From contig OY969425.1 of the NCBI GenBank assembly GCA_963699255.1, forward strand, positions 935,112 through 999,111: a DNA stretch of 64,000 bases, written 5' to 3'. The notes beneath the pieces are model-generated. The model worked only from the letters and a program-made list of their open reading frames with translations, did not search any database and was not told where the DNA came from. The stretch is from an uncultured bacterium (GTDB lineage Bacteria > Margulisbacteria > WOR-1 > CAVSGV01). Of the stretch, positions 39,124 to 57,130 are shown one piece after another. Position 1 is the stretch's first letter. Each line of letters starts with the position of its first letter. A program made the position numbers and the translations under genes.

Positions 39124-40359
39124 TTAATGGTTCACGCCGTTTTCTTTCTTAAATTGAGCGACCAGAGCCGGGATATCCAGATACGCGCGCATCGAATCCG
39201 TACAGCAGAAGAATTTTTTCGCGTTCTTATCCACGTATTTTTTTATCGCGGGGAAATCGTCCTGAAGTTTCAGCAGCTGGACCATCGCCTCTTTCATTAA
39301 GAACATCTTGATAAGTTTCTTTTCGTCTCCCGTGGCGCCGTCGTGATCAAAAAAGCGGGACAGGGGCTTTTCCAATACCTGATAATAGAAAGGATCCACA
39401 AAACCCCTGAAATGTTGCATGGTGTCGATCTTTGCCGCCGCAACATACGAATATGTCCTGAGGACAAGCGGATCGTCCGCCCATGTAAGCGCTTTCAGGT
39501 TCTTTATATATTGTCCGTATTCACCCGCAAAACAGACGTATTTATCCACATTAGATAAATAGGCTGCTCCAATCTCCTTTTTTACGTCCGAGCCGGCTTC
39601 AGACATCGCCTGATTAATGACTCTCGAGACTTTCCTGTCCGCGATATTCCCTTCTATGATCGCAATGTCATTATTTATTGCCCGCTCTCGCAGATAATTG
39701 AATGATTCCATGGTGAACAGCCACTCGTTCTGGTAAGGCTTAAGGGACGTCTCCCCTGTCCAAATATGAAAGAACGAATACAGGAATATATCCCTCAGGA
39801 ATCTTTTTTCAGGGTTGGTCAACATTTCCGTTAACAGGGCGAATTCTTCCGCGTCTTTTATTGCACCCCTTGCATACTGGAGATTTTTCTGGGCTATCAT
39901 CATATTACCACAACCCTCGTTTTTTATGGGATCGCTGATATCAAAAATATGCTTCGAGATCGCGCTCAAGAGTTCGTTATCATCCTGAATGGCAATGTTT
40001 CGTGCCTCCTTGATGAGCATGGCGCTTTTTGCAAAAGCAAGGAATTCAAAAGGATTCTTTGTGATCTTTAATAATGTCTTTATCGCCGAAAGGTGGTCGG
40101 CAACATCAACGGAAACATCCACTATTATCGATTTCTGCGGCTTAATTTTGCATATGTGATCGAAGTTCTGATGGCTGCCGATCCCTAAATATATCCCTTT
40201 TGTCTCCCTCTGACCATAAGTAAATCCGGACAATCTTTCATTGGAATGGATGTCTCCAAATCCCCCGCTTTCAAACCCCACCGTACATCCCGGCGGACGT
40301 ATCTTCTTAATATAAGCGGGAGCCTTTATTCTCGTAACCGCCTTTGAAAATATGCTCAT
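39124..40359 (-). CDS. Hypothetical cytoplasmic protein (411 aa)
   Basis: Long ORF with no signal peptide and no motif I can place. Confidence 0.5.
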   Translation of the reverse strand: MSIFSKAVTRIKAPAYIKKIRPPGCTVGFESGGFGDIHSNERLSGFTYGQRETKGIYLGIGSHQNFDHICKIKPQKSIIVDVSVDVADHLSAIKTLLKITKNPFEFLAFAKSAMLIKEARNIAIQDDNELLSAISKHIFDISDPIKNEGCGNMMIAQKNLQYARGAIKDAEEFALLTEMLTNPEKRFLRDIFLYSFFHIWTGETSLKPYQNEWLFTMESFNYLRERAINNDIAIIEGNIADRKVSRVINQAMSEAGSDVKKEIGAAYLSNVDKYVCFAGEYGQYIKNLKALTWADDPLVLRTYSYVAAAKIDTMQHFRGFVDPFYYQVLEKPLSRFFDHDGATGDEKKLIKMFLMKEAMVQLLKLQDDFPAIKKYVDKNAKKFFCCTDSMRAYLDIPALVAQFKKENGVNH

Positions 40360-40524
40360 GATATCTTCTTATCGATAAAATCAATGAAAAATCCCACTTT
40401 TCACAGCGGATCCCCGCGCGAAGCAACACTACTGGTCAGAAAAGCCATGCCTCCAAAACAATGCAAGTTTACGGCGCCATCTCCCGATATATATCATGGA
40501 AGATGAAGCAAAGGAGATGTGCAA

Positions 40525-40776
40525 ATGAGCGGATCAATAAGCGGATTATCCTTAAATTCCAGTACCGCAATATCAAGTGCGCAAGACGAGACGAATTTAT
40601 TCGATGCGATCAACAGCATCGCCACAAGTTCATCGTCAGATTCGGATTCGGATGCTATTGATTCCATGGCTTCATCCCTGAATAGTTCAGCGCCATCCAG
40701 CACAAGCACAAGCGGTACCAGCTCTGTATCAAATCCCTTTTCAACTTCGGGGACGATAACGAACACCATAGCTTAG
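40525..40776 (+). CDS. Ser/Thr-rich low-complexity small protein
   Basis: RBS AAGGAG then ATG; translation is over 40% Ser/Thr (SSSSDSDSDAIDS...). Coding status uncertain. Confidence 0.3.
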   Translation: MSGSISGLSLNSSTAISSAQDETNLFDAINSIATSSSSDSDSDAIDSMASSLNSSAPSSTSTSGTSSVSNPFSTSGTITNTIA

Positions 40777-40833: not shown

Positions 40834-40862
40834 TTTACATTGCTTATTTTATTCACTATAAT
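40834..40862 (+). promoter_or_regulatory. Sigma-70-like promoter (TTTACA-N17-TATAAT) ending 6 nt before the rpoN ATG
   Basis: -35 at 40834-40839, -10 at 40857-40862; rpoN ATG at 40869 with no room for an RBS, so a leaderless transcript is predicted. Confidence 0.45.
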
Positions 40863-40868
40863 GCCCAC

Positions 40869-42236
40869 ATGAACAAACTGGGGCTCGGATATGAACTTAA
40901 CCTCTCAAATACGCTTGAGCTGATGCTCTCGCCGCGCATGATCCAGATGCTCAGGATGCTGAACCTCTCCTATGTGGAGCTTGTGGAGGAGATAGAGAAA
41001 AGATCCGAAGAGAACGTGATGCTGGAGCTGGAACACCCGGACAGGCTGCTGGAATACCTGAAGCACATAAGCACCGAGAGGATATCTAAAAAGGAGATCC
41101 CTTATGAAGAGCTGCCGGGAATAGAGAGCCTGGCCGACACGGCAGAGACCCTTGAGGACCACCTCCTCAAGCAGCTTGATCTTGAAGAGCTGAATGAAAA
41201 GAAAAGAAAGATCGCTGAATTCATCATAGGCAGTATCGACACGAGAGGTTATCTGCAGAATTACGAGCAGATCAGCGGAGCGATAAAAAAGGAACTGGGC
41301 GCGAGCCAGAATGAGATAGACAGCACGCTGGAGGTGATCCAGGATCTGGAGCCGGATGGCGTGGGAGCAAGGGCCCTGAAGGAATGCCTCCTTATACAGG
41401 TAAGGGAATACAACTTTGAAAGCGAAGAACTGGAAGATTTGCTGACAAAGGCGATAGAGGACCACCTGGATGACTTCGCGGAAAAGAAATTCGACAGGAT
41501 CGCGAAAGCGCTGAAGATCGGAAGGGACGGCGCCGAAAAGCTCGCCGAGTTCATAAAGAACAACCTCAATCCCAACCCGGGATCGATGTTCGCCGAGAGG
41601 CTTCCCTGCGTGATCCCTTCTTTTTCGATCGTAAAAGAAAAGGACAAATACAAGGCCGTTAACCTGGAAAAGACCTACGGCCCGTCGCTCAAGATCAGTC
41701 CCGTGTATGAAAAAATGCTGAGAGACCCGAAAACCGACGCGAAGAGCCTTGAATTCCTGAAGGAAAAACTTGAAGCGGCAAAGGATTTCCTGGAGAACAT
41801 CGCGAAACGGCATGAAACGATCGAAAAAATACTTGACCTGATAATCGCGGCCCAGAGCGGATCTTTTGAAGGCGGCAAGCTTAAGTTGAACCCTCTTATG
41901 CAAAAGAACATCGCAAAGGACCTCGGCCTTCACCCGTCCACCATCTCAAGGGCGATCGCGAACAAATATATACAGACCCCCCGCGGGATCATCCTCCTGA
42001 AAACCCTCTGCCCCCGGGAGATAAAAGGCACGACCGGCGAAAAGATCCATAAGCTTATACAGGTCATCATCGATTCGGAAGACAAAAAAGATCCGCTGAC
42101 GGACGAGGAGATAGCCGAAAAGCTGAAGAGCGACGGCCTGTACCTTGAGAGAAGGACCGTGGCTCTGTACAGGAAAAAGCTGGGATTTGAAATAGCTTCG
42201 AAAAAGAGTGAAATTTTAAGTCGGAACATACGATAA
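40869..42236 (+). CDS. rpoN: RNA polymerase sigma-54 factor
   Basis: Region I LELMLSPRMIQMLRMLNLSYVELVEEIE; HTH LGLHPSTISRAIANKYIQTPRGIILLKTL; RpoN box ERRTVALYRKKLG. Confidence 0.9.
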   Translation: MNKLGLGYELNLSNTLELMLSPRMIQMLRMLNLSYVELVEEIEKRSEENVMLELEHPDRLLEYLKHISTERISKKEIPYEELPGIESLADTAETLEDHLLKQLDLEELNEKKRKIAEFIIGSIDTRGYLQNYEQISGAIKKELGASQNEIDSTLEVIQDLEPDGVGARALKECLLIQVREYNFESEELEDLLTKAIEDHLDDFAEKKFDRIAKALKIGRDGAEKLAEFIKNNLNPNPGSMFAERLPCVIPSFSIVKEKDKYKAVNLEKTYGPSLKISPVYEKMLRDPKTDAKSLEFLKEKLEAAKDFLENIAKRHETIEKILDLIIAAQSGSFEGGKLKLNPLMQKNIAKDLGLHPSTISRAIANKYIQTPRGIILLKTLCPREIKGTTGEKIHKLIQVIIDSEDKKDPLTDEEIAEKLKSDGLYLERRTVALYRKKLGFEIASKKSEILSRNIR

Positions 42237-42266: not shown

Positions 42267-43721
42267 TTGACGGAAGCGGGAGAAAAAATGACCGACGGTA
42301 AAGCAGACATATTGATAGTTGAAGATGAAAAAAACGTAAGAGCCGCGCTCTCCCTTGCTCTCTCGGATAAATACAACCTCTTTTCGGCATCCGACGGGAA
42401 AAAGGCCCTCGAAATGATCTTTGAAAGGAACATCGACCTGGTGCTTCTGGACATAAGGCTTCCCGAAGTGAACGGGATGGACGTCCTTAAACAAATAAAG
42501 GACATGAGCAGCTCGATCCCGGTGATAATGCTTACGGCAGTCAGGACCGTTGATTCCGCCGTATCAGCCATGAAGCTCGGCGCCTACGATTACGTGATAA
42601 AGCCTTTTGACATAAACGAACTGATGGCGCTGATCGAAAAAGCGCTTGAAAAAAGGAACCTTGAAAAGGAGAACGTTTTTCTGAAGAACGAGCTTGAGAA
42701 GACCGGCGGCTTTGAAAAGATCATAGGCATGAGCGAGAAAATGAGGGAAATTTTCAAGCTGATAAAAAGCGTGGCGAGAGGCGACGCAACGGTGCTTATC
42801 ACAGGAGAGTCCGGGACCGGCAAGGAACTTGTCGCGAGGGCGATACACCACCAGAGCAAGAGGGCAAAAAAACTGTTCGTCCCGGTGAACTGCGCGGCGA
42901 TCCCCGAGAACCTTCTCGAGTCCGAGCTCTTCGGCTATGAAAAGGGCGCTTTTACGGGGGCGTATGAGCGGCGTCTGGGTAAATTCGAGATCGCCAACGG
43001 CGGAACGATATTCCTGGATGAGATAAGCACAATGCCGCTCCCAATGCAGGCAAAGCTACTCAGGGTCCTTCAGGAGCGCGTCATAGACAGGGTGGGCGGC
43101 ACGATCCAGGTAGAGATCGACGTGAGAGTGATCTCCGCCACGAATTCGGACCTTAAACAGGAGGTCGACAACAAAAAATTCAGGGGCGACCTGTTCTACA
43201 GGCTTAACGTGATCCCGATGGTCATCCCTCCGCTCAGGGAGCGAACGGAAGACATACCTCTGCTGGTGAACTATTTCCTTGATAAGTACAACAAGGAGTT
43301 CGGCAAAAAGATAAAAGAGTTCGACGCTGATGCCATGCACGTTCTCACTTCCTATCCCTGGCCGGGCAACGTCAGGGAACTGGAGAACCTGATAGAGCGG
43401 CTCGTGGTCCTGAGCGACAGGAACATTATCACAAAAGACAAGCTCCCTCCCGAGATATACAAAAAGCTGATGGACGAACACGCGAAAAGATTCGAAATGG
43501 ACTTCATAAAACAAGCCATACAAAAATCCAACTTGAACGAACGGCAGCTGAAAGCGATAGAACTCGTCAAAAGCCAGGGGAAGATAACGAAGCAAACCTA
43601 TATCAAGCTGACCAACACCCCGAAAACCACTGCTTTCAGGGACCTGCATACGCTCGTAAAGCTCCACATATTGACCCAGAAAGGCATCGGAAAGAGCTCC
43701 TGCTACACGCTCTCGGATTAG
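42267..43721 (+). CDS. Sigma-54-dependent response regulator (NtrC/PilR-like activator)
   Basis: REC domain; AAA+ domain with Walker [15 protein letters not shown] loop and Walker B FLDEI; the C-terminal DNA-binding region is not the usual Fis-type HTH. Confidence 0.9.
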
Positions 43722-43743: not shown

Positions 43744-43781
43744 GGACCGCAAACGGACCGCAAAACGGACCGCAAAACGGA
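43744..43781 (+). repeat. Three tandem copies of GGACCGCAAA(A)C
   Basis: GGACCGCAAAC GGACCGCAAAAC GGACCGCAAAAC GGA, 23 nt after the activator stop codon and about 110 nt before the next gene. Confidence 0.7.
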
Positions 43782-43888
43782 AACTCATCATATTTACCCG
43801 CGTCCATTATGGCTTTATTTGGTATGATAATTGCTATATAATAGATGGAACCAATGTTTAGGCACGATCCTATAAAGGAGTGATCTAC

Positions 43889-44290
43889 ATGGCAAGGCTT
43901 GAGCCCGGTGAGCAGAATGAACAAAAAGAGATGAACCCGAAGTTCCTTTCCGTGATCCTTGACAGGGATTTCCAGAAACAGCAACTCGAGGAAAAAGACA
44001 GATCAAAGGTGGAGCTGTTCGAGCGCGGGCTCGCGTGTGAGCTATTAACGTCCGATACCATCGACAGGTCCGTGGAAAAGATAGTGAAAATGGCCCTTGC
44101 CTGCGAATTCGGCGCGGAGCTGGTAACAAAACCGGCCGCAAAAAAAATGGTCTCCGTTATAAGCCGCGGCATCCTGTCGGACAGGGATCTGAGGAGATCC
44201 GCTCTTATCATAGCCGACAGGTTCGCGACCAGCAGGAAGACCAAGATCGTGCCTCTTAGGGGGAAGGGAAAGTCCGTGATAAATGGCTGA
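43889..44290 (+). CDS. Hypothetical protein (133 aa) between the two activator genes
   Basis: RBS AAAGGAG then ATG at 43889 (the tracked ORF starts on GTG at 43880); its stop overlaps the start of the next gene. Confidence 0.5.
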   Translation: MARLEPGEQNEQKEMNPKFLSVILDRDFQKQQLEEKDRSKVELFERGLACELLTSDTIDRSVEKIVKMALACEFGAELVTKPAAKKMVSVISRGILSDRDLRRSALIIADRFATSRKTKIVPLRGKGKSVING

Positions 44291-45587
44291 TATTAAACCA
44301 GTAATACTTGTCGTCGATGACGAAACGAACATAAGAGAATCTTTCACCCTCATTCTGGAGAAAGAATTCAATGTGATCACCGCCGCCTCAGGAGAAGCCG
44401 CGCTTAAAAGGATCATAGACGAGAAGGTCGACCTGGTATACCTCGACATAAGAATGCCGGGAATGAACGGCATGGAAACGCTTAAGAGGATAAAAGAAAT
44501 AGACAGCAGCATTGAAGTTATAATGGTCACCGCACTGAATGACGTTGGAGGCGCGGCCGCCGCGATCAAGCTCGGGGCCAAAGATTACATCGTAAAGCCT
44601 TTCGACGTGAAGGATATCCTGAACAGGACGAGAAGCTTTGTGATAAAAGCCCAGACAAAAGCCATAAAGCCGCCAATGGAGGATGAACTGATAGGCAACA
44701 GCAGGCAGATCCAGAACATAAGGAAAGTTGTGGAGCAGCTATCGCAAAAGGGCTCTTCCGTACTGATCATCGGGGAGAAGGGACTCGAAGCCGAACAGAT
44801 CGCCGCGATCGTGAACGGCGAATCCGAAAAGGAACTGAAGAAGCTGGACGCGTCTTCCGATCTCGGAAGTTGGGTCCTTTTTGGGCGCGAGAAGGGTTCT
44901 TTCACGTCTGAGTTCGAAAAAGAAGCCGGCATGCTGGAGGAAGCGAACGGTGGCATACTGTTCATAAGGAACATAGAACTCCTTCCCATGGACGTTCAGA
45001 AAAAGCTGGGACAGGCGCTTTCAAAAAAAGAATTTTCCCGCGACGGCTCCTCTGCGGCGATACACGTGGACTTGAGGGTTATAGCGGAAACATCCGCAGA
45101 TCCGGCTGAACTCATAAAAGAAGGCAGCTTTGACAGGGACCTTTATAACGCCATAAGCAGAACGGTGATCGAGCTGCCTCCGCTCAGGATGAGGGAAAGC
45201 GACATACCGATACTGATAAACCACTATGTTGATAAATTTTCGATCAAATACGACAGGCAATTAAAAGTATCCCCCGAAGCCCTTGAAATACTCGCGGGCT
45301 ATCCATGGCCCGGGAATCTGGCCGAGCTGTCGAACGTTATAGAGGCGATCATGCTGTCGAGCAAAAAGGAAGTGCTGGAACCGGACGATCTCCCCCTGGA
45401 TATCCTGATAAAAAGCCCCGCCGGAGGAAGGCCATTCACGACGCTTGAGAATATCGAAGGAAAGTTCGAAAAAGCCCATATCCTTAGCGTTTATAAAAAA
45501 GCCGGGGAAAGCAAAGAGAAGGCTTCGGCAATGCTCGGTATAGGGCTGAAGACCCTGGAATCCAAGCTTGAATCGATCAACGCCTGA
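44283..45587 (+). CDS. Response regulator with degenerate sigma-54-activator AAA+ domain
   Basis: Intact REC; Walker A position reads GEKGLEAE (no GK), GAFTGA position reads GSFTSEF, Walker B position reads FIRNI. Confidence 0.7.
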   Translation: MADIKPVILVVDDETNIRESFTLILEKEFNVITAASGEAALKRIIDEKVDLVYLDIRMPGMNGMETLKRIKEIDSSIEVIMVTALNDVGGAAAAIKLGAKDYIVKPFDVKDILNRTRSFVIKAQTKAIKPPMEDELIGNSRQIQNIRKVVEQLSQKGSSVLIIGEKGLEAEQIAAIVNGESEKELKKLDASSDLGSWVLFGREKGSFTSEFEKEAGMLEEANGGILFIRNIELLPMDVQKKLGQALSKKEFSRDGSSAAIHVDLRVIAETSADPAELIKEGSFDRDLYNAISRTVIELPPLRMRESDIPILINHYVDKFSIKYDRQLKVSPEALEILAGYPWPGNLAELSNVIEAIMLSSKKEVLEPDDLPLDILIKSPAGGRPFTTLENIEGKFEKAHILSVYKKAGESKEKASAMLGIGLKTLESKLESINA

Positions 45588-46243
45588 TGGCCTCAAGACT
45601 TATCCCGATAGACCTCCTTATCCTTGACTTTGACGGCACGCTTACGGACTCGATCCCGCCCGCGGTCGCCGCGATACAGAAAATGCTCAAAAAACTGGGC
45701 CTTCCCTACAGATCAAAGAAAGAGATCAATGAACACGTCGGCTACGGAGAGCCCCCGCTTCTTGAAGGGTCAACAGGTTCCAAAGACCCGGAGCTGCTGA
45801 AGAAAGCGATGAGCACCTATGAGAAGATATATATGAAAGAAGGGATCAAAAAAGTCACATTATATCCCCACGTGAAGGGATTCCTTGAATATTTCAAAGA
45901 TAAGCCAAAAATTATCGTTTCCAACAAAAAAGATCTTTTCATAAAAATGATACTCAAGAACCTGGGGTTGACGAAGTATTTTAAAGAAATTCATGGAGGG
46001 GATACCCTGCCCTGCCTTAAGCCGGACCCGCACGCGATAAACATCATGATAAAGAAATACCGGGTTTCGAGGAATCGGGTGTTGTTCATCGGGGACATGA
46101 CGGTGGACATCGAGACCGGAAAGAACGCGCATGTGCGCACATGCGCTGTGACCTACGGATTTGACAGCGTGAGCAAATTAAAGAAGCACAAGCCTGATAT
46201 CCTGATCGATAATCTGATGGAGCTGAAGGATCTGATAGAATGA
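45587..46243 (+). CDS. HAD-superfamily hydrolase (phosphoglycolate phosphatase-like)
   Basis: Motif I LILDFDGTLTDS and motif FIGDMTVD. Confidence 0.75.
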   Translation: MASRLIPIDLLILDFDGTLTDSIPPAVAAIQKMLKKLGLPYRSKKEINEHVGYGEPPLLEGSTGSKDPELLKKAMSTYEKIYMKEGIKKVTLYPHVKGFLEYFKDKPKIIVSNKKDLFIKMILKNLGLTKYFKEIHGGDTLPCLKPDPHAINIMIKKYRVSRNRVLFIGDMTVDIETGKNAHVRTCAVTYGFDSVSKLKKHKPDILIDNLMELKDLIE

Positions 46244-46244
46244 A

Positions 46245-46329
46245 TGCCCAGAGTCGGACTCGAACCGACATGACCTATTCGGTCAAGGGATTTTAAGTCC
46301 CTCGCGTCTACCAATTCCGCCATCCGGGC
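46245..46329 (-). tRNA. tRNA-Leu (anticodon UAA)
   Basis: Reverse complement GCCCGGATGGCGGAATTGGTAGACGCGAGGGACTTAAAATCCCTTGACCGAATAGGTCATGTCGGTTCGAGTCCGACTCTGGGCA folds by eye into a cloverleaf with a long variable arm; no encoded CCA. Confidence 0.8.
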
Positions 46330-46354: not shown

Positions 46355-46801
46355 CTAAAACTTCTTGGGTTTCTTGCCTTCCTGTTTTACCTGTATGTTC
46401 CGCTTCCAATCAAGCAGTTTTTCTTCGCTCTGTTTCAGGAAATTGGTCATCTTTTCCTCGAAAGAATTGGAGAATTTCCTCGGTTCGCGCCTTTCATATC
46501 TCCTTGGGCCGCCCGCCGGGCCGCCCGCCGACTGGCCGGGCCTGTCGAATTTCTTCTCTTCCCGCTTCTCCAGCTGCTTTATCGAGAGGTCATACTTGCC
46601 GTCCTTGGTCACGCCTATGACCCTTACCTTAACGGTGTCCCCTACTTTTAAATGCTGGGCCACGTCCGTGACATAAGTGTTCGATATCTGCGAAATATGG
46701 ATAAGCCCCACGTTCCTTTCGCCAAGATCAACGAACGCGCCGAATTTCATGATGCCCGTCACGCGTCCCTCAACGATACTGTCAACTGCTATAGACCCCA
46801 T
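46355..46801 (-). CDS. S1 RNA-binding domain protein
   Basis: VEGRVTGIMKFGAFVDLGERNVGLIHISQISNTYV...VKVRVIGV is an S1 domain; basic C-terminal tail. Confidence 0.75.
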   Translation of the reverse strand: MGSIAVDSIVEGRVTGIMKFGAFVDLGERNVGLIHISQISNTYVTDVAQHLKVGDTVKVRVIGVTKDGKYDLSIKQLEKREEKKFDRPGQSAGGPAGGPRRYERREPRKFSNSFEEKMTNFLKQSEEKLLDWKRNIQVKQEGKKPKKF

Positions 46802-46823
46802 ATTCTCCCCTCCCGAAGATCGA

Positions 46824-48468
<1,645 letters not shown>

Positions 48469-48478
48469 ACCATATCGT

Positions 48479-49174
48479 TCACCATATCAAAATTGAAACA
48501 ATTGCCCCCAAAGCGAGGAAAGGCGCGAACGGAATATAATCCTCCCTGTTCAGCTTTTTCAGCAGGATTAGCGCTATGCCCGCTGCGGCTCCGGTCAGCG
48601 AAGCGAAGAGAACGGATAGAAGCGTCCTCTCGATGCCGAGATTTGCCCCGAGCATGATAAGCAGCTTTATATCCCCGTCGCCCATCGCCTCTTTTTTTAA
48701 CGCGTATTTTGCCGCCGACGAGATCAGGAACATGAACGAAAAACCGAAACAAGCGCCGGTCAGGCTTTCGATAAAGTTGCCGCTATAAGCCGAATACGCG
48801 AGCCCCGTGCCGATCCCGATCAGCATCAGGAAATCGGGGATCACCATGTGTTCAATGTCAATAAAAGAAATAAGGACCAGCAGGATCGAGAATATTAAAA
48901 TAGCGGCGAACCGGACTGAAAAACCCACCTTTAGATAGAAGATCAATAACAGCGCCGCGGTCAGGGCTTCAACAACAGGATAGCGGATGGATATCTTTTC
49001 CCCGCAATATCTGCAGCGGCCGCGAAGGATCAAATAACTGATCAGGGGAATAAGGTCGTAAGCTCTCAAAGTTGACTTGCATTTCGGGCAGTGGGACGGC
49101 GGGTAAACGATCGATCCCTCTTCAGGGATCCTGGAAATACATACGTTCAGAAAACTTCCCGTAACAAGGCCCAA
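48479..49174 (-). CDS. pilD: Prepilin peptidase (A24 family)
   Basis: Zinc-binding CPKC...CRYCGEKIS and catalytic region MGDGDIKL; multiple TM helices. Confidence 0.8.
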   Translation of the reverse strand: MGLVTGSFLNVCISRIPEEGSIVYPPSHCPKCKSTLRAYDLIPLISYLILRGRCRYCGEKISIRYPVVEALTAALLLIFYLKVGFSVRFAAILIFSILLVLISFIDIEHMVIPDFLMLIGIGTGLAYSAYSGNFIESLTGACFGFSFMFLISSAAKYALKKEAMGDGDIKLLIMLGANLGIERTLLSVLFASLTGAAAGIALILLKKLNREDYIPFAPFLALGAIVSILIW

Positions 49175-49229
49175 AACAATTATTAGTGAGTAAATCGCTG
49201 CCGTTTCTACTTTAATGCCGCCTCTTTTC

Positions 49230-49258
49230 TTGACTTTACCAGCAAATAAATATATATT
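49230..49258 (+). promoter_or_regulatory. Sigma-70-like promoter (TTGACT-N17-TATATT) for the REC-pilB-pilC operon
   Basis: -35 at 49230-49235, -10 at 49253-49258. Confidence 0.4.
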
Positions 49259-49288
49259 AGTATATCTTTGAAGTCAAATCCGTCTTGA

Positions 49289-49308
49289 CCTGCCTGCCGG
49301 CAGGCAGG
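49289..49308 (+). promoter_or_regulatory. Perfect 20-bp GC-rich palindrome CCTGCCTGCCGGCAGGCAGG in the leader of the pilus operon
   Basis: Exact inverted repeat (10+10) between the predicted promoter and the ATG at 49322, with no following T-run. Confidence 0.5.
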
Positions 49309-49321
49309 GGCAGAAAGATCT

Positions 49322-49675
49322 ATGAAAAAAATCCTAGTGGTGGACGACGAGGAAAGCGTAAGAATCATATTAAAACAGATGCTTGAAAAGGGCGGCTACA
49401 GCGTTGAGGTCAGGAGCGACGGAGAGGAAGCGCTGGGGGCGCTAAAAAGCGGCCGTTTTAACATGCTTATCACCGACATTAATATGCCGAAAATGAACGG
49501 CATTGAACTCCTTTATAAAACAAAAGAAGAGTTCCCCGCCATGCCTGTGGTCTTTATCACCGCTTACGGAAAAGACAAAACGATAATTGAGGCAATGAAA
49601 ATGGGGCTCTCCGATAACATAGAAAAACCGTTCAGGATGGATGATGTCCTGAAGACCGTTAAAGACCTCATTTAA
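49322..49675 (+). CDS. Stand-alone response-regulator receiver (CheY-like)
   Basis: 117 aa; KILVVDDEESVR...MLITDINMPKMNG with acceptor Asp; no output domain. Confidence 0.8.
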   Translation: MKKILVVDDEESVRIILKQMLEKGGYSVEVRSDGEEALGALKSGRFNMLITDINMPKMNGIELLYKTKEEFPAMPVVFITAYGKDKTIIEAMKMGLSDNIEKPFRMDDVLKTVKDLI

Positions 49676-49692
49676 AGAAGGGACGTGAGCAG

Positions 49693-51390
49693 ATGCCCGT
49701 CAGGCAAAGAAAATCCCTCGGGGAAAGCCTTGTTGAACAAAAGATAATATCCGAAGAGCAGCTCAGGACCGCCGTAAAAGAAAGCGAGAACAGCGGCGAA
49801 CCGCTGAGAAAAACGCTTGTAAAGACCGGATTGGTCTCTGAAGAAGACATCTGCGGCTTCTTTGAGGAACAGCTAGGGATCCCCAGAATAGACCTGAAAA
49901 ATTACCTGATAGATCAAAAGATACTTTCGCTGATCCCCGAAAGTCTCGCCAAGAAATACAACCTGATCCCGCTTTTCAAGACCGGGGATACCCTGACGAT
50001 AGCCACCGCCGACCCTCTAAATGTCGTGGCTATGGATGAGATCAGGATAAAGACCAAAAGCAACATTGAACCCGCGGTGGCGACAGAAACCGAAATAAGG
50101 AACTCGATAAACCAGTATTACGGGGTAGGCGGCTCCATAGAAGACATCATCAGGAGCATTGACATAAAATCGCTCGCCATAGATGAAGGCAAGGAAGAAA
50201 TAGAGCCGGAAAAGCTGAAAAATATCGCGGAAGAAGCGCCCATAATCAAGCTTGTGAACCTGATAATCCTTCAGGCGATAAGGGATAAAGCTTCCGATAT
50301 TCACGTGGAACCGGAAGAGGACAGCCTGCAGATCAGGTTCAGGGTCGATGGGATCCTGCATGAGCAGGCCACCATCCCGAAACAGATGCAGGCGGCGGTG
50401 CTTTCCAGAATGAAAATAATGTCCGACATGAACATCGCGACAAAAAGGATCCCTCAGGACGGAAGGTTCAGGTTGAACATAGAGGGAGGACAGATAGATA
50501 TGAGAGTGTCATCCCTCCCGACCATCTTCGGCGAAAATATCGTGATGAGGCTTCTTGATACGACAAGCATACTTATCGGTCTGGAAAGGCTGGGCTTTGA
50601 CGAAAAAAACCTTGAAAAATTCAAGTCCCTTATCGTCAAACCGCACGGGATAATCCTTGTTACGGGTCCTACAGGTTCCGGGAAAACAACGACGCTGTAT
50701 TCCGCTTTGAACACCATAAACACTCCGGACAAGAACATCATTACGGTCGAAGATCCGGTGGAATATCAGCTGAAAATGATCCGCCAGTCGCAGATAAACC
50801 CGAAAGCGGGGCTTACTTTCGCGACGGGACTGCGTTCGATCTTAAGGCAGGATCCGGACGTAATAATGGTCGGTGAAATAAGGGACCTGGAGACGGCTGA
50901 AATATCGATCCAGGCGGCGCTGACCGGGCATCTGGTGTTTTCCACCCTTCACACGAACGATGCCCCCAGTTCGCTGACCAGATTGACCGACATGGGGGTT
51001 GAACCTTTCCTTATATCCTCTTCCGTGATCGGGATCATCGCCCAGAGACTTGTAAGAACGATATGTCCGTCCTGCAAGCAATCCTATACCCCTTCCAAGG
51101 AGGCCCTTGATGATATAGGCGTAACACTTCCGGAAGGACCGCTGAAGTTCTACAGGGGCGCCGGATGCAAGGTCTGCAAGAACACCGGATACAAAGGCAG
51201 GATAGGGATATTTGAAATGCTCCTGCTTGATGACAAGATCAGGGACCTGATCCTTGCCAAAACCTCGAGTGCTCAGATAAAACACCTGGCGCAGGAATCC
51301 GGCATGAAGACGCTGCGCGAGGACGGGGTCGTAAAAGTGCTCGCGGGCGCTACCACGATAGATGAAGTTATCAGGGTAACTCAGGAATAA
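49693..51390 (+). CDS. pilB: Type IV pilus assembly ATPase (GspE/PilB family)
   Basis: N-terminal GspE-type domain, Walker A VTGPTGSGKTTTLYS, C-terminal tetracysteine CPSC...CKVCKNTGYKGRIGIFE. Confidence 0.9.
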   Translation: MPVRQRKSLGESLVEQKIISEEQLRTAVKESENSGEPLRKTLVKTGLVSEEDICGFFEEQLGIPRIDLKNYLIDQKILSLIPESLAKKYNLIPLFKTGDTLTIATADPLNVVAMDEIRIKTKSNIEPAVATETEIRNSINQYYGVGGSIEDIIRSIDIKSLAIDEGKEEIEPEKLKNIAEEAPIIKLVNLIILQAIRDKASDIHVEPEEDSLQIRFRVDGILHEQATIPKQMQAAVLSRMKIMSDMNIATKRIPQDGRFRLNIEGGQIDMRVSSLPTIFGENIVMRLLDTTSILIGLERLGFDEKNLEKFKSLIVKPHGIILVTGPTGSGKTTTLYSALNTINTPDKNIITVEDPVEYQLKMIRQSQINPKAGLTFATGLRSILRQDPDVIMVGEIRDLETAEISIQAALTGHLVFSTLHTNDAPSSLTRLTDMGVEPFLISSSVIGIIAQRLVRTICPSCKQSYTPSKEALDDIGVTLPEGPLKFYRGAGCKVCKNTGYKGRIGIFEMLLLDDKIRDLILAKTSSAQIKHLAQESGMKTLREDGVVKVLAGATTIDEVIRVTQE

Positions 51391-51401
51391 GATAATTCAG
51401 C

Positions 51402-52616
51402 ATGCCAACTTTTTCCTATAAAGCGAGAGACGAAACCGGCAAGCCGATCTCCAGCATAATGGAAGCGTCAAATAAAGATGCCCTTGCCTCAAGGCTGCAA
51501 AAGCTCAAGTACACGGTCATCTCAATTTCCGAAAAAGCGATCCCGTTCACAATAGATAAGTTCCTGCGAAGGTTCACCAGAGTAAAGATCAATGACCTGG
51601 TAATGTTCAATGTTCAACTTGCCAATATGATAGGCGCCGGGATCCCGTTGCCATCGAGCCTTATGACCCTTTCGGAACAGATCGAGAACGAAAGATTAAA
51701 GGATGCCGTAAGCGACGTATATAACGAGATAAAGGGAGGCCAGACCTTCGCTGACTCCTTAAAAAAACATCCCGATATTTTCCCCCCGCTTTTCACGAAC
51801 ATGATACATGCCGGCGAGGTCGCCGGGAACCTGGATGAAATATTGAACAGGCTGGCGACATTCGTGGAACACGAATCGGAGCTGAGGCAAAAAATAACCA
51901 CGGCGCTGTTTTATCCGATGATCCTTGCCGTATTCGGCACTGCCGTCGTGGTGTTAATTATTGTTACTATACTTCCCTCTTTCGCCAAAATATTCATCGA
52001 AGCTAATGTTCCGCTGCCGCTGCCGACAATGGTGCTTTATAACCTGAACCTGGTAATAAGGGCTTACTGGAAGCATATTATTGTGGCGATTGCAGCGCTG
52101 TTCTTTCTCGCGAGGTGGTACAAAAGGACCCCGACCGGGAAATATTACCTGGACAGCGCCATGCTCAATATCCCTGTCTGGGGAAAACTGATAAGGGAGT
52201 CAACGGTCGCCCGCCTCACAAGGACACTTGCGTCGCTCATTTCAGCCGGCGTCCCGATGCTGCAGTCACTTGAGGTAACGGAGAAGACAATAGACAACTC
52301 GATAATCTCCGGGGTTCTGAAGGACGTATATTCATCGGTAAGCAAAGGCGAGACTATTTCAGAACCGCTAAGGAAAAGCGGCCAGTTCCCGGCTATGCCC
52401 ATCCACATGATAGCCGTTGGTGAAGAAACCGGTGCACTGGATACAATGCTCAACAAAGTTGCCGATTATTACGACATGGAAACAGAATACAGCATAAAAA
52501 GGATCACTTCGCTTCTTGAGCCTATTTTTCTGGTCATTATCGGCGGTATGGTGGGATTCATTTTTGCATCTATACTGCTGCCCATATTCCAGATGGTGAA
52601 GACGCTGAAACACTAG
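51402..52616 (+). CDS. pilC: Type IV pilus inner-membrane platform protein (GspF/PilC family)
   Basis: Two-repeat GspF architecture with three TM segments; 404 aa. Confidence 0.9.
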   Translation: MPTFSYKARDETGKPISSIMEASNKDALASRLQKLKYTVISISEKAIPFTIDKFLRRFTRVKINDLVMFNVQLANMIGAGIPLPSSLMTLSEQIENERLKDAVSDVYNEIKGGQTFADSLKKHPDIFPPLFTNMIHAGEVAGNLDEILNRLATFVEHESELRQKITTALFYPMILAVFGTAVVVLIIVTILPSFAKIFIEANVPLPLPTMVLYNLNLVIRAYWKHIIVAIAALFFLARWYKRTPTGKYYLDSAMLNIPVWGKLIRESTVARLTRTLASLISAGVPMLQSLEVTEKTIDNSIISGVLKDVYSSVSKGETISEPLRKSGQFPAMPIHMIAVGEETGALDTMLNKVADYYDMETEYSIKRITSLLEPIFLVIIGGMVGFIFASILLPIFQMVKTLKH

Positions 52617-52768
52617 AGGAGCTAGAAGAACTAGATGTTAAGAGGTGAAAAGGTTGAGAAGAAAAAGAGGAAGGACCTCTTTACCTCTTCCACTTTTAGC
52701 TCCCCTAGCTCTTCTAATTCTTGCGTATTATTATTACGGTAGTATAATGTTTTTCGTCTCTGGTACAT

Positions 52769-53815
52769 ATGGAAATAAACAGCTTACTTAAAATAGTAGT
52801 TGAAAAAAATGCTTCGGATCTGCTCATCGTATCCGGAACAGCTCCTGTACTCAGGATCAACGGGGCGCTTTCTCCCATAGATTCCGCGAGACTCTCTGAA
52901 AGCGAAGCAAAATCCCTGATCTACGGTCTTCTCACTCCGAAACAGATAGAAACCTTCGAGAAAACAAAGGAACTTGACTGCGGTTATGAACTTAAAGGCG
53001 TATCAAGGTTCAGGGTCAACGTTCACTATCAAAGAGGCACGGCAGCAGCGGCACTGAGGCTTATCCCTTCCGAGATCCCGACGCTCGAGGACTTAAGGCT
53101 CCCAAATGTTGTTGCCGATTTCGCCAACCTTGAGCGGGGGCTGGTGCTTGTGACCGGACCCACGGGATCCGGGAAAACCACAACGCAGGCGTGCATGGTG
53201 GACATTATCAATGCGAGCAGGAGCCGCCACGTGATAACCATAGAAGACCCCATCGAATACGTCCACGGAAACAAAAGAAGCATTGTGGAACAAAGAGAGG
53301 TCGGACTCGACACCGAATCCTTTGATTCCGCCTTGAAGAGAGTGCTAAGGCAGAACCCTGATGTCATACTGATAGGGGAAATGAGAGACCTGGAAACCAT
53401 ACAAACCGCTATAACAGCCGCGGAAACAGGCCACCTTGTCATATCCACCCTTCATACGAACGACGCTGTGCAGGCGGTAGACCGCATTATCGATGTTTTC
53501 CCGCCATACCAGCAGACCCAGGTAAGGATGCAGCTTTCGCTGTCCCTGCAGGGGATAATGGCCCAGCAGCTTATACCGAGAATAGACAAGAAGGGACAGA
53601 TAGTCGCCACAGAGGTCCTTATTGCCACTTCGGCCGTCAGGAATTTGATCAGGAAAGGCACCACCCAGGAGCTATATTCCACACTGGACATAGGCGCGAA
53701 ATTCGGGATGCAGAGCATGGATGCCTGCCTTAAGAATCTATACAAGAACAAGTTGATATCATACGACGAAGCTTTCGCGCACGCGATAAACCAGGAGCAT
53801 TTCGAGAAACTTTGA
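52769..53815 (+). CDS. pilT: Twitching-motility retraction ATPase
   Basis: 348 aa; LVLVTGPTGSGKTTT Walker A, GHLVISTLHTND and general PilT length. Confidence 0.9.
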   Translation: MEINSLLKIVVEKNASDLLIVSGTAPVLRINGALSPIDSARLSESEAKSLIYGLLTPKQIETFEKTKELDCGYELKGVSRFRVNVHYQRGTAAAALRLIPSEIPTLEDLRLPNVVADFANLERGLVLVTGPTGSGKTTTQACMVDIINASRSRHVITIEDPIEYVHGNKRSIVEQREVGLDTESFDSALKRVLRQNPDVILIGEMRDLETIQTAITAAETGHLVISTLHTNDAVQAVDRIIDVFPPYQQTQVRMQLSLSLQGIMAQQLIPRIDKKGQIVATEVLIATSAVRNLIRKGTTQELYSTLDIGAKFGMQSMDACLKNLYKNKLISYDEAFAHAINQEHFEKL

Positions 53816-53839
53816 CATTTCGTCCCGTTATAATATAAT
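53812..53839 (+). promoter_or_regulatory. Sigma-70-like promoter (TTGACA-N16-TATAAT) for the pilin gene
   Basis: -35 at 53812-53817, -10 at 53834-53839, then RBS AGGAGGGGG and ATG at 53864. Confidence 0.45.
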
Positions 53840-53863
53840 GTAAAAAAAGGAGGGGGTGAAAAA

Positions 53864-54316
53864 ATGAAAACAAGCAAAGGCTTTACTCTTATCGAGTTAC
53901 TCATAGTCATGGCGGTCATAGCCATATTGATCGCTATAGCGATCCCTAGCTTCAGAGGCATGCAGCAGGAAGCAAGGAAGACAAAGGCTCAGGGCGACGT
54001 CAGGGTAATAAAGATTGCTATCGAATCTTACTACAAGAATCATAACAATCAATACCCGGCTACTGGAGTCGACTACCAGACAACACTGCAAAACGCTGTA
54101 CCAAGGATACTTGAAGGAACGTTGAACGATCCTTTCAGCGTAGGTGCAAATGTGCCTTATCAGTATGCTCTAAGCGGTGCAGACCCAACGAGTTCCGATT
54201 ACTATATCATATGGTCAGTCGGACCGAATCAATCAGCTGTACCGGCCACAGTGTCAACATCAGGCATTGTTACGGCAACAAATGAGGTGATCTGGGAATC
54301 GAACGGTCACATGTAA
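53864..54316 (+). CDS. Type IV pilin (major pilin candidate)
   Basis: Class III signal MKTSKG/FTLIELLIVMAVIAILIAIAIPSF with Glu5 after the G/F cleavage site; 150 aa. Confidence 0.85.
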   Translation: MKTSKGFTLIELLIVMAVIAILIAIAIPSFRGMQQEARKTKAQGDVRVIKIAIESYYKNHNNQYPATGVDYQTTLQNAVPRILEGTLNDPFSVGANVPYQYALSGADPTSSDYYIIWSVGPNQSAVPATVSTSGIVTATNEVIWESNGHM

Positions 54317-54350
54317 TCACGGAATGTCTTTAAAGACATGTTGATTTAAA

Positions 54351-54381
54351 GGGAGCTGACTAGTCGGCTCCCTTTCTTTTT
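54351..54381 (+). terminator. Intrinsic terminator after the pilin gene
   Basis: Stem GGGAGC...GCTCCC followed by TTTCTTTTT. Confidence 0.55.
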
Positions 54382-54384
54382 AAT

Positions 54385-54545
54385 TTCCAATGACCAATCC
54401 CAAATAAATACCAATTAATTTGCAATTACCAATTTGACAATTGACCGCTAAGTACAAAAGCGCACAATTTGTCTTATTTCATTGACTAATTGGACATTGG
54501 TCATTAATTTGACATTTGACACTGGAAATTGGTAATTGATTTTCC
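54385..54545. repeat. Low-complexity intergenic repeat (CCAAT / ATTGG and TTGACA motifs)
   Basis: CCAATGACCAATCC...CAATTACCAATTTGACAATTGACC...TTGGACATTGGTCATTAATTTGACATTTGACACTGGAAATTGGTAATTG with inverted symmetry. Confidence 0.55.
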
Positions 54546-54564
54546 TTTGTGTTATCATTTCTTC

Positions 54565-54924
54565 ATGAAATCAAAGGGTTTTACTCTACTTGAGATCCTC
54601 CTGATAATAATCATCCTTATTTTAGTTTTCTTTCCGCTTTTGGAGATGCTCTCAAGCGGCCTTCTGGTAAGCGACAAAGTAAAAAGCACGAACACCGCCA
54701 TGATACTTGCCCAGCAACAAATGGAGGCCGTTAAGAATTCCTCCTTCACTTCCATAAGCAGCACACCTCAGACCACGATCGCGTCATACCCGGCCTATAG
54801 CTCACAGGTCATAGTAAGCACGCCTCAAACTAATTTAAAGGATGTTCAGGTGATAGTATACTGGCTTTCGGTCACAGGATCACAAACAAGTGTATCTATT
54901 GAAACATTTATATCGAATTTCTAA
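54565..54924 (+). CDS. Minor pilin / pseudopilin with prepilin-type N-terminus
   Basis: MKSKG/FTLLEILLIIIILILVF; start taken at the internal ATG at 54565. Confidence 0.65.
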   Translation: MKSKGFTLLEILLIIIILILVFFPLLEMLSSGLLVSDKVKSTNTAMILAQQQMEAVKNSSFTSISSTPQTTIASYPAYSSQVIVSTPQTNLKDVQVIVYWLSVTGSQTSVSIETFISNF

Positions 54925-54937
54925 GGAGCTCACACAG

Positions 54938-55501
54938 ATGCTTGGATTTGCTCAGCATGACACACAATGTCGCTCTGAACGAAGTGAAGGATCTGCCTTG
55001 AAGGAAAGTCTGCGGCGTTCTGCAGGGTTCACCTTAGTGGAATCCGTTTTAGTGCTGGCTATGCTCGGTTTTTTGATGGTCGTGATCTTTTACGCCTTCA
55101 CGGCCTCCATGCGCATCTTCACGAGTGAGATGTCCGAAGCCGATACATCCCTGGAAACGCACAGGGCCATGGAGCGGATGACAAAAGAGCTGAGGGGCGC
55201 CCTTCAGATAGTTTCGGCGGAGGCTTCAAGCATAACCTTCTGGTATAACGATCTAAATGGTGATGGAACAATGGAAGCGAATGAAACCGTAACATATTCC
55301 TGGACAGGAGCATCTCCGGGATACATAAACAGGACTGTGCAAACTTCGACACAGGAGGTCTCGTCCGGGATCATGAACTTTTCTCTTACATATAATGACC
55401 CGGACCCGTCCAATATCAACTTCATCACCATATTTATGGCCGCTCAGAATGGCTCTACCATGAGCACGCTCGAATCCAGTGTGGACTGCAGAAATTTATG
55501 A
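54938..55501 (+). CDS. Minor pilin / pseudopilin with long leader
   Basis: RRSAG/FTLVESVLVLAMLGFLMVVIFYAF after a ~30-aa leader; RBS AAGGAG before the ATG at 54938. Confidence 0.6.
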   Translation: MLGFAQHDTQCRSERSEGSALKESLRRSAGFTLVESVLVLAMLGFLMVVIFYAFTASMRIFTSEMSEADTSLETHRAMERMTKELRGALQIVSAEASSITFWYNDLNGDGTMEANETVTYSWTGASPGYINRTVQTSTQEVSSGIMNFSLTYNDPDPSNINFITIFMAAQNGSTMSTLESSVDCRNL

Positions 55502-55513
55502 TATAATCAGGTT

Positions 55514-57130
55514 GTGCCGGGAAATAATATAGTTATTGGACTGGACATAGACGGAAAATCTGTCAAGTTCGCAAAGCTTAAGAAAACTGACAGCGAAACG
55601 ACCCTTTTAAAATACGCCGTCCGCGAAGTTCCCCCATCAGAAGATAAGATCAAAGCGGTCTCAGACATCCTTAAAGACCTGTTCAAGGGCGAAAGACAGG
55701 ACACCGAAGTTTACACCTGCGCGTTCGGGACAAATGTTAGCTTAAAACGCCTGACCATCCCCGTGATGCCGGATGAAGAGATAAGGGAAGCCCTGCAGTG
55801 GGAAGCCAAAAACCTGGTCCCCTTCCCTATCGAGAATTCCACATTGGATTTCTACAAGATAGGCAAGATATCCGACAAGGCTGTGGAAAAGTATGACGTC
55901 ATGTTCGCCGTCGCCGGTGAGGAATTGCTCAGCTTCCTGACCTCCGTCTCAAAAGAATCCGGGATCCGATTTTCAGGGATATCGCTTATCCCTCTTGCGC
56001 TAAGCGCGCTCCTGCTCCACAACAAAAAGTTCGATAAAGATAAGATCAATGCCATCATAGATATCGGGGCCGAAGCTGCCAGCATAAACCTTTTCAAAGG
56101 CGATGTGCTTAACTTCACAAGGGTGATAACCGTTGCAGGCGACTCCCTCACAAAAGCCATGACAGGGCTCCTTGTGGCTGACCGATGGCAGCTGAATCTG
56201 ACCTATGAACAAGCCGAGGAAATAAAGAAAAAATACGGCATACCAAAAAAAGACACGACCGAGGTCACGGACAGCGGGATACCGCTGGTCCACATCTACG
56301 AGATGATGGCTCCAACACTGCGCAGGCTCCAGAACGAGATCCTAAGATCTTTCGATTATTATAAAGAGGAATTCAGGGAGGAAAAGATCGACAGAATATT
56401 CCTTACAGGCGGCACCTCACACCTGATCAATCTGGAAGAATTCCTCTCCAACGCGCTCGGAATAAAGGTAGAGACCTTAAATCCCTTTGAAAACCTGAAA
56501 ATAGACCCATCATCAGGAATAGCCCCCGCAGCATTAAAAGAAGCGTCGCCAAGGCTTGCCCTTGCTGCAGGTCTTGCCCTGGAACAAAGCGAAAAAATAA
56601 ATTTCCAGAGGAAAATGGAAAAGTCGCGAAAGCTGATAGGCCTGGAAGGGATGTTCGGCAAGATCAAATTAAAGATCCCGGTACAGATCCCGGTAAATCT
56701 TTTCGCCTATGGTTTAGTGGCGTTATTGATCCTTGCTTTCTCATATAACTTTTACCTGACAAGACTTAGGGATCACTACAAAAAAGAGATCGCGTCAAAA
56801 CAAGCCATTCTAACGGATGTTAAGACCCTTATTGACAAAAGAACGATCCTTGAACAGATCTCAAAGGAAGAAACCCACATAAGAGAAACCCTGTCGCAAA
56901 TGACGCGGGTGCTGCCCGCGGGCATAACCCTGACGGACCTTACATACGATAACTCGCAGCGCCAGATATGGCTGGCAGGCGCCGCCAGTGACACAAATGC
57001 GGTCGGCAGACTGCTGAAGAACTTTGAGGATTCTCCGAACTTCAAAAAAGCGGTGCTGATAGAAGCGCGCAAAGGGGCGTTTGAAGGCGTCCAAAAGGTC
57101 ATTTTTAAGATTACTTTTAACCTGACTTGA
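55514..57130 (+). CDS. PilM-PilN fusion protein
   Basis: N-terminal actin-like PilM domain (IGLDIDGKSVKFAKL..., IDIGAEAASINLF), then a TM helix and PilN-like periplasmic region; 538 aa. Confidence 0.75.
   Translation: MPGNNIVIGLDIDGKSVKFAKLKKTDSETTLLKYAVREVPPSEDKIKAVSDILKDLFKGERQDTEVYTCAFGTNVSLKRLTIPVMPDEEIREALQWEAKNLVPFPIENSTLDFYKIGKISDKAVEKYDVMFAVAGEELLSFLTSVSKESGIRFSGISLIPLALSALLLHNKKFDKDKINAIIDIGAEAASINLFKGDVLNFTRVITVAGDSLTKAMTGLLVADRWQLNLTYEQAEEIKKKYGIPKKDTTEVTDSGIPLVHIYEMMAPTLRRLQNEILRSFDYYKEEFREEKIDRIFLTGGTSHLINLEEFLSNALGIKVETLNPFENLKIDPSSGIAPAALKEASPRLALAAGLALEQSEKINFQRKMEKSRKLIGLEGMFGKIKLKIPVQIPVNLFAYGLVALLILAFSYNFYLTRLRDHYKKEIASKQAILTDVKTLIDKRTILEQISKEETHIRETLSQMTRVLPAGITLTDLTYDNSQRQIWLAGAASDTNAVGRLLKNFEDSPNFKKAVLIEARKGAFEGVQKVIFKITFNLT

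Follow-up and report, generated by a model that had tools for sequence, protein, structure and literature searches.

A sigma-54 activator paralogue with degenerate ATPase and sigma-54-contact motifs, coupled to a small conserved protein, in Margulisiibacteriota

The locus

We analysed a 64-kb stretch of contig OY969425.1 (assembly GCA_963699255.1, positions 935,112 to 999,111), hereafter the window, which represents 3.6% of the genome of an uncultured bacterium of the WOR-1 lineage. Two adjacent paralogous genes for sigma-54 activators (bacterial enhancer-binding proteins, bEBPs) lie there in the same direction, at 42267-43721 and 44283-45587, with a small open reading frame (ORF) between them, an arrangement that we found at 28 loci. 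The first gene encodes a canonical activator. The second, which is the main subject of this report and is called the dead paralogue below, encodes a response regulator whose AAA+ part has lost the motifs for ATP hydrolysis and sigma-54 contact while its receiver (REC) domain is retained. Its features are as follows.

44283-45587, + strand: dead paralogue, a REC / pseudo-AAA+ / lid / vestigial helix-turn-helix (HTH) response regulator of 434 aa (alignments, profiles and model)
44304-44627, + strand: REC domain, aa 8-115 (Response_reg, E 3.2e-29), with the phospho-acceptor Asp55 at 44445-44447
44772-44795, + strand: Walker A remnant GEKGLEAE, aa 164-171 (alignments)
44895-44912, + strand: L1 loop remnant GSFTSE, aa 205-210, at the GAFTGA position (alignments)
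44961-44975, + strand: Walker B remnant FIRNI, aa 227-231, at the FLDEI position (alignments)
45465-45572, + strand: vestigial Fis-type HTH, aa 395-430 (HTH_8, 18.2 bits against a gathering score of 22)

Motif losses and retained fold

The dead paralogue shares 36% identity with its neighbour over 394 aa (BLASTP, E 2e-85), and its REC, AAA+, lid and HTH order is that of a homologue of the NtrC1/NtrC4-type sigma-54 activators. The Pfam profile Sigma54_activat (PF00158) aligns to residues 136-295 over profile positions 1-166 of 168 (E 7.6e-31, 107.5 bits against a cut-off of 20.2), and the lid is recognized as AAA_lid_14 (E 1.9e-21). The initial annotation of this gene had stated that the Walker A, GAFTGA and Walker B motifs are all replaced with the REC domain kept, and the BLASTP, Pfam and NtrC4 alignments bear this out. 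BLASTP pairs GEKGLEAE with the Walker A of the neighbour, GSFTSE with GAFTGA and FIRNI with FLDEI, and the phmmer alignment to Aquifex NtrC4 (4l4u) gives the same register. The possibility that the motifs are intact and merely offset is ruled out, given that the alignments agree in register and that a scan of the whole protein by regular expression found no G..G.GK[STE] or [AG]....GK[ST] P-loop, no GAFTGA-like string and no hhhDE.

The careful pairwise and profile alignment not only upheld the degeneracy but extended it to sensor I, the arginine fingers and sensor II. In the Walker A the last P-loop Gly is replaced by Glu and the Lys by Ala; the sensor I Asn has become Ser (ETS), neither arginine finger is left (FDRDLYNAIS), and the sensor II Arg is an Ala (GNLAEL vs GNVREL in the neighbour). 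The REC active site is intact (D12-D13, D55, T83 and K105). The Walker A Lys, the Walker B Asp-Glu, the arginine fingers, sensor II and the Phe and Thr of GAFTGA are all required in PspF and NtrC1. Because every residue needed is lost, it is well supported at the sequence level that the paralogue alone should be unable to bind or hydrolyse ATP or to remodel sigma-54, and this part of the earlier interpretation stood.

The fold, on the other hand, is kept. An AF2 model built on 45 relatives has a mean pLDDT of 85.5, and its AAA+ domain superposes on those of NtrC1 and FleQ at 2.5-2.9 A (TM ~0.88). Full-length NtrX, NtrC4 and NtrC1 are the top structural matches of the model, with NtrX the best, and a long linker helix spans residues 109-128. 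The dead paralogue is thus a pseudo-enzyme of the bEBP family, with the fold kept and the chemistry gone.

We also considered whether the paralogue could be a receptor of c-di-GMP like FleQ or VpsR, and rejected this because the Arg that follows the Walker A, which is used by FleQ and VfmH (PMC10714721), is absent (IAAIVN vs VARAIH).

An old clade under uneven constraint

A protein search gave more than 110 cluster representatives, from which five ordinary activators were set aside, and 115 relatives show the same losses. The Walker B Glu is missing in all 115 (N in 92, H in 20, D in two and G in one), none has the sensor II Arg or the second finger Arg, and the last P-loop Gly is a Glu in 113. 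The Walker A Lys is retained in 67 of the 115 and is an Ala in the clade of the window, and positions 5 and 6 of the GAFTGA-equivalent loop are variable and acidic. The D/D/D/T/K set of the REC domain is invariant in every relative. When the dead proteins were placed in a neighbour-joining tree with outgroups and the adjacent canonical activators, they came out as a single clade with long branches in 100 of 100 bootstrap replicates. The organisms named for the relatives are Margulisiibacteriota, WOR-1 or Saganbacteria, with a few labelled Omnitrophota or just "bacterium". On this tree and sampling, the dead paralogue is one old clade that belongs almost exclusively to Margulisiibacteriota (WOR-1, Saganbacteria).

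The two paralogues were compared in the same 23 genomes by mean pairwise identity. In the REC domain the dead paralogue is better conserved than its active neighbour (0.69 vs 0.63; 0.68-0.69 over the two calculations made for the paralogue), whereas the order is reversed in the AAA+ core (0.37 vs 0.74) and in the lid (0.40 vs 0.59). The landmarks LFG, GG.LF, PPLR.R..DI and WPGN are still conserved in the AAA+ part. By these measures, purifying selection on the paralogue is concentrated on the REC domain, with the AAA+ part a relaxed but retained scaffold.

The AAA+ core thus evolves about twice as fast as that of the active neighbour, as could be expected of a non-functional duplication relic heading to loss. 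This reading is exceedingly improbable and, because of the conservation data, refuted for practical purposes: the reading frame is full-length at every completely sequenced locus, identity goes down to ~37-40% across the phylum, the REC domain is more strongly constrained than in the active paralogue, substitutions such as the Walker A Glu are derived and fixed, and the translational coupling and the promoter described below are conserved.

The same contrast between domains could also mean that only the REC domain matters, so that the paralogue, induced by sigma-54, would be a phosphate sink that drains phosphoryl groups from the kinase of the activator. The REC domain is by far the best-conserved part, above the activator's own, its phospho-acceptor residues are all invariant, and no output activity appears to be left. 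However, ~120 residues would suffice for such a role, yet ~115 lineages keep ~300 more, with landmarks and a confidently predicted fold. In addition, the alpha-1 specificity region differs from that of the activator, and the scanned ORFs of the window included no histidine kinase gene, such that we consider a sink quite unlikely.

A small helical protein as the obligatory partner by gene order

The genes that accompany the dead paralogue are the following.

40869-42236, + strand: rpoN (sigma-54), 455 aa (Pfam Sigma54_AID, CBD and DBD; NCBIfam TIGR02395, 327.7 bits against a cut-off of 277)
42267-43721, + strand: canonical REC-AAA+ sigma-54 activator, 484 aa, all motifs intact (Sigma54_activat, E 1.7e-73)
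43889-44290, + strand: small conserved helical protein, 133 aa, no annotated family (conserved gene order and overlap)
45587-46243, + strand: HAD-type phosphatase, 218 aa (HAD_2, E 5e-32)

Several elements go beyond the initial annotation, namely the coupled small gene, a sigma-54 promoter, a candidate activator site, the vestigial nature of the HTH and loci that carry only the pair of small gene and paralogue. The end of the small ORF overlaps the start of the paralogue by 8 nt (ATGGCTGA). At the five loci for which public gene calls exist, orthologues with 45-63% identity are placed likewise and overlap the paralogue by 4 or 8 nt, and because of this the small ORF is, as judged from gene order, a real gene. 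Its product is 106-145 aa long across the loci, helical and unannotated. The family counts 378 homologues, all "hypothetical" or inconsistently auto-named and none with a Pfam domain, and an exhaustive profile search of 1.84 billion protein representatives recovered 69 relatives. No Pfam, NCBIfam or PDB sequence match was obtained for the small protein, which resembles no solved anti-activator in sequence or fold.

When species-representative genomes were scanned with the small protein, 35 loci were found, all in Margulisiibacteriota, Saganbacteria, WOR-1 or unnamed metagenome-assembled genomes except for a single one labelled Omnitrophota. The order rpoN, activator, small ORF, paralogue is present at 28 loci. 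Wherever downstream sequence was available, the dead paralogue came directly after the small ORF; by gene order, the obligatory partner of the paralogue is the small protein and not the activator.

The small protein also has more distant but still significant homologues (profile E 5e-9 to 5e-8), which were detected at loci L041 (391-777), L042 (395-796) and L044 (1221-1601) and on an ENA contig (sample ERZ1426847). They have a fixed order of their own: flhA, the homologue (126-133 aa), a conserved ORF of 69-74 aa with the motif LKRFWDFT, and a sigma-28-like gene. One of these flhA-linked homologues lies within a flagellar export cluster. The small-protein family may have a general association with alternative sigma-factor modules.

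A sigma-54 promoter and a candidate activator site

Three regulatory features were located upstream of the genes of the module.

40834-40862, + strand: sigma-70-type promoter TTTACA-17-TATAAT before rpoN (consensus scan alone, 11 of 12 matches)
43744-43776, + strand: three direct repeats GGACCGCAAA, a candidate upstream activator sequence at about -101 to -69 from the inferred transcription start
43820-43835, + strand: sigma-54-type -24/-12 promoter TGGTATGATAATTGCT (strict motif match, conserved position)

A -24/-12 element stands upstream of the small ORF at all 28 four-gene loci and at six of the pair-only loci, with TGGCAATAAGATTGCT as typical copies. The strict motif has two matches in the 64 kb, against 0.30 expected. 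The other match lies at 31578-31593 (+ strand, TGGCAATATTATTGCT), ~200 nt upstream of a gene (31788-33653) for an amino-acid permease fused to a P-II nitrogen-regulatory domain, and would need a different activator, since there are no GGACCGCAAA repeats nearby. Indeed 43744-43776 is the sole place in the window with exact GGACCGCAAA copies.

The type of site differs between clades. In the clade of the window (the window, L002, L006, L007, L009, L010 and the metagenome locus L056) GGACCGCAAA or a close variant is directly repeated two to four times, whereas most other clades have an NtrC-like palindrome, TTGATTTGCACA-N7-8-TGTGCTAAA (GCACA..TGTGC), often with a second half-site upstream. The C-terminus of the window activator is winged-helix-like and replaces the Fis HTH_8; it gives weak HTH_DeoR and IclR matches and matches the C-terminal part of a Fic family protein (PDB 8cil, E 9e-4). 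Canonical activators elsewhere have a Fis HTH with the helix LGIHRNTL. The site type switches exactly with this domain, the GGACCGCAAA repeats going with the winged helix and the palindrome with LGIHRNTL. DNA-binding domain and operator have been swapped together in L002, L006, L007, L009 and L010 as compared with L001, L003 and L011-L037 (43440-43721 in the window). Because the site co-varies with the DNA-binding domain of the adjacent activator, we have good indirect evidence that this activator binds upstream and drives the promoter, and we infer that the small protein and the paralogue would be the products of sigma-54 transcription fired by their neighbour. A metagenome-wide scan for the GGACCGCAAA site returned 59 stretches, one of which came from a relative (L056) and from the same intergenic region; with so few close relatives assembled, it gives no information on the regulon.

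The palindrome, in the form TTGATTTGCACA-N7-8-TGTGCTAAA(A/G)T, lies ~20-45 nt upstream of the -24 element in L001, L004, L005, L011-L029 and L039, and its sequence equally makes a good sigma-70 promoter, with TTGATT and an extended -10 separated by a spacer of 17 nt. The sigma-54 element is missing from L005 and L036, where the palindrome site is the sigma-70-like TGTGCTATAAT, and in the clade of the window a TATAAT directly follows the -12 element (TTGCTATATAAT). Overlapping sigma-70 and sigma-54 promoters are thus possible.

Neighbouring genes

The start of the HAD gene shares one base with the stop codon of the paralogue, and the gene is found at this position in the window and L002 but is absent from L001 and L003-L005. 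Its product resembles phosphoglycolate phosphatase, but the models for that enzyme score under their cut-offs. No terminator-like site was found on the + strand from rpoN to the end of the HAD gene, directly after which a tRNA-Leu(TAA) gene lies on the opposite strand (46245-46329). Upstream of rpoN are a DUF7790 protein (39124-40359, - strand) and, directly before the rpoN promoter, a serine-rich ORF of 85 aa (40519-40776, + strand).

In the window (46355-59852) and in L001-L005 the module adjoins genes for an S1-domain protein, FtsB/DivIC, a prepilin peptidase and type IV pilus components (pilB, pilC, pilT, pilins, a pilM-pilN fusion, pilO and secretin); the block in the window also includes an enolase gene and a single-domain response regulator (49322-49675). 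Control of these pilus genes by sigma-54, as with PilR, was considered and rejected: none of the response regulator/pilB, pilT and pilin genes has a -24/-12 element in its upstream region, and we found sigma-70-like -10 elements there. At the other side of the window, positions 1-21000 have a G+C content of 0.38-0.43, compared with 0.45-0.57 elsewhere, save for an excursion at ~12-18 kb, and encode ParB-like, PriCT-type primase and N6/N4 DNA methylase proteins. Because of the low G+C and these genes, this region is probably an integrated mobile element.

Proposed mechanism

The conserved order, the sigma-54 promoter and the co-varying site lead us to treat rpoN, the activator, the small protein and the paralogue as a module. 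We tentatively propose that the dead paralogue, induced by sigma-54 and gated by phosphorylation, modulates the canonical activator, probably as an inhibitor, with the small protein as its co-factor. In this proposal rpoN and the activator would be transcribed from the sigma-70-type promoter. The activator would bind the three GGACCGCAAA repeats and, with sigma-54, fire the promoter at 43820, which would drive the small protein and, through translational coupling, the paralogue, as well as the HAD phosphatase in this clade. The paralogue would then pair with activator protomers through its REC domain and linker, or enter the ring through its AAA+ scaffold. A subunit with neither a P-loop nor an arginine finger would disable its own site and that of its neighbour, hence two catalytic sites per subunit, and the inhibition would close a negative feedback loop on the activator. 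The small protein would be a stoichiometric co-factor of the paralogue. The near-invariant Glu at the P-loop Gly position would obstruct the pocket for the phosphates and repel the nucleotide, and one could speculate that it mimics an occupied site.

The initial annotation had already suggested a phosphorylation-controlled partner or antagonist of the activator. We regard this second part of its interpretation as plausible, in that it fits the gene order at the 28 loci, the sigma-54 promoter with its matching site and the constraint on the REC domain.

Several observations weigh against our proposal. The REC alpha-1 helices of the paralogue and the activator differ consistently (SIRESF vs Ks.R.s), and because of this a kinase shared by both REC domains is not indicated. 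About nine loci have the pair with no rpoN or activator within ~6 kb (L004, L005/L036, L025, L027, L030, L034, L039 and the short L029 and L031), so that the pair can persist apart from the activator gene, and three pair-only loci are without the sigma-54 promoter. In the tree of the paralogue, all seven pair-only loci that were included cluster as two adjacent groups (L025, L027, L030 and L034; L004, L005 and L039). Moreover, were the operon the sole target of the activator, pure feedback would leave the system without an output. Finally, the HTH of the paralogue, even though vestigial, still counts as an HTH.

Comparison with known systems

The atypical bEBPs, namely E. coli TyrR, R. capsulatus HupR, M. 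xanthus HsfA, P. putida PhhR, B. abortus NtrX and V. cholerae VpsR, resemble the dead paralogue in that they have the NtrC-family architecture and lack GAFTGA; some have non-consensus Walker motifs, and VpsR, with ND at the Walker B DE, has no detectable ATPase activity (PMC6158489). Since they are a recognized category, the degeneracy alone is not new. There are however clear differences. The atypical bEBPs regulate by binding DNA, and for most of them action together with the sigma-70 RNA polymerase has been shown, whereas the HTH of the paralogue is vestigial, and NtrX has been crystallised with ATP and with ADP (5m7n, 5m7p) whereas the P-loop of the paralogue is destroyed. Unlike any of them, the paralogue is coupled to a small partner and lies behind a sigma-54 promoter, beside rpoN and an intact paralogue. 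The NCBIfam equivalog models score far below their cut-offs on it (NtrX 224.7 vs 600, TyrR 108 vs 576), and among solved chains it matches NtrC4 (4l4u, E 1.8e-57) and NtrC1 (1ny5, E 2.1e-53), with VpsR at E 1.5e-23. By these scores it is not an orthologue of any characterised atypical bEBP. The closest proteins by sequence, NtrC1 and NtrC4 of Aquifex, are likewise built of REC, helical linker, AAA+, lid and Fis HTH, in that order; in contrast to the paralogue they are active ATPases with an intact GAFTGA.

The dead paralogue could nonetheless be a sigma-54-independent transcription factor of the atypical kind, like NtrX, VpsR, HupR or TyrR, and serve as the effector of a cascade: induced by sigma-54 and phosphorylated, it would dimerise or oligomerise via its dead AAA+ domain and bind sigma-70 promoters through the Fis-like HTH, for instance those of pilus or cell-division genes. 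Besides the precedent of proteins that work with sigma-70 despite such motif losses (PMC6158489), this would agree with NtrX being its best structural match, with the persistence of the pair where no activator is adjacent, in L005 behind the sigma-70-like TGTGCTATAAT, and with the type IV pilus genes that adjoin the pair at all loci checked for neighbours. It has an HTH_8-like C-terminus (E 0.002), and PF02954 is recorded for some relatives, but in the paralogue the score is under the Pfam gathering threshold. The C-terminus (mean identity 0.35) is conserved no better than the dead AAA+ core, and its recognition helix varies across the family, in many cases stops 9-10 residues past LGI and is without the DNA-contacting Arg and Asn of Fis/NtrC-type HTHs, which are invariant in the LGIHRNTL helix of the canonical neighbours. 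A variable helix without basic residues makes the paralogue an unlikely DNA-binding factor in itself. No candidate binding site was identified for it, and the obligatory small partner would be left unexplained. Taken together, we judge the cascade somewhat unlikely.

The other group of relevance includes the negative regulators. In the PspF-PspA and FleQ-FleN systems the negative regulator comes from the sigma-54 regulon or the same cluster and acts on the AAA+ domain; PspA, HrpV and FleN bind this domain of the activator, and HrpG counteracts HrpV. In Pseudomonas syringae, HrpR and HrpS are tandem bEBP paralogues that form a mixed ring and were described as a case of "partial paralogue degeneration"; the small HrpV binds one AAA+ domain and inhibits, HrpG relieves this inhibition, and PspA is likewise a negative regulator of PspF (PMC3105312). 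The locus described here resembles HrpR/HrpS in having two adjacent specialised bEBP paralogues, and the proposed design would have its precedent in HrpR/HrpS/HrpV/HrpG. However, HrpR and HrpS both keep their ATPase motifs, contact sigma-54 and have no REC domain, whereas here one partner is fully dead with a highly conserved REC domain. As for HrpV, it was not compared directly with the small protein, which matched no solved PDB chain.

These systems suggest that the small protein, rather than the paralogue, might be the inhibitor, an anti-activator that acts on the AAA+ domain of the activator or on sigma-54, with the paralogue a look-alike that sequesters it under the gate of REC phosphorylation, much as HrpG does with HrpV. 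The strict coupling of the two genes at all loci with downstream sequence, the retention of the AAA+ fold without catalysis and the predicted induction of both proteins by sigma-54, as is the case for pspA and indirectly for hrpV, are compatible with such a decoy, and the distant homologues next to a sigma-28-like gene hint at a role with sigma factors or activators. On the other side, these arguments are purely contextual, the small protein is unlike any solved anti-activator, and the pair-only loci argue that the pair works without an adjacent activator. We therefore hold the decoy to be unlikely. If it were correct, it would amount to a new, phylum-wide control of sigma-54, in which a REC-gated pseudo-AAA+ protein captures or releases a small anti-activator or anti-sigma-54 factor and so subjects the rpoN-linked activator to a partner-switch feedback loop controlled by phosphorylation, and, because the distant relatives sit between flhA and the sigma-28-like gene, the small protein would define a wider regulator family at alternative sigma-factor modules; we give this extended version the same low credence.

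Significance

The searchable literature yielded no paper linking Margulisbacteria with sigma-54, and on degenerate or inactive bEBP paralogues only HrpRS, RedR1/2 and VnfA/AnfA-type systems, which have active subunits, were found. The surprise is limited, given that degenerate bEBPs were already known and that the family is almost wholly confined to uncultured bacteria. Margulisiibacteriota are an uncultured sister lineage of Cyanobacteria, and two of their uncharacterised protein families now gain a hypothesis that can be tested in vitro, together with a promoter and a candidate site for reconstitution.

Sigma-54 activators are the textbook example of an ATP-driven transcription switch, and their known negative regulators, PspA, NifL, HrpV and FleN, are unrelated proteins. 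To our knowledge, regulation by pseudo-enzyme subunits has so far been documented mainly in eukaryotic AAA+ assemblies. The likely induction by sigma-54, the fusion to a strongly conserved REC domain and the coupling to a small protein all point to control of this kind at the locus and, if our proposal is true, bacteria would also regulate AAA+ transcription machines with pseudo-enzyme subunits.

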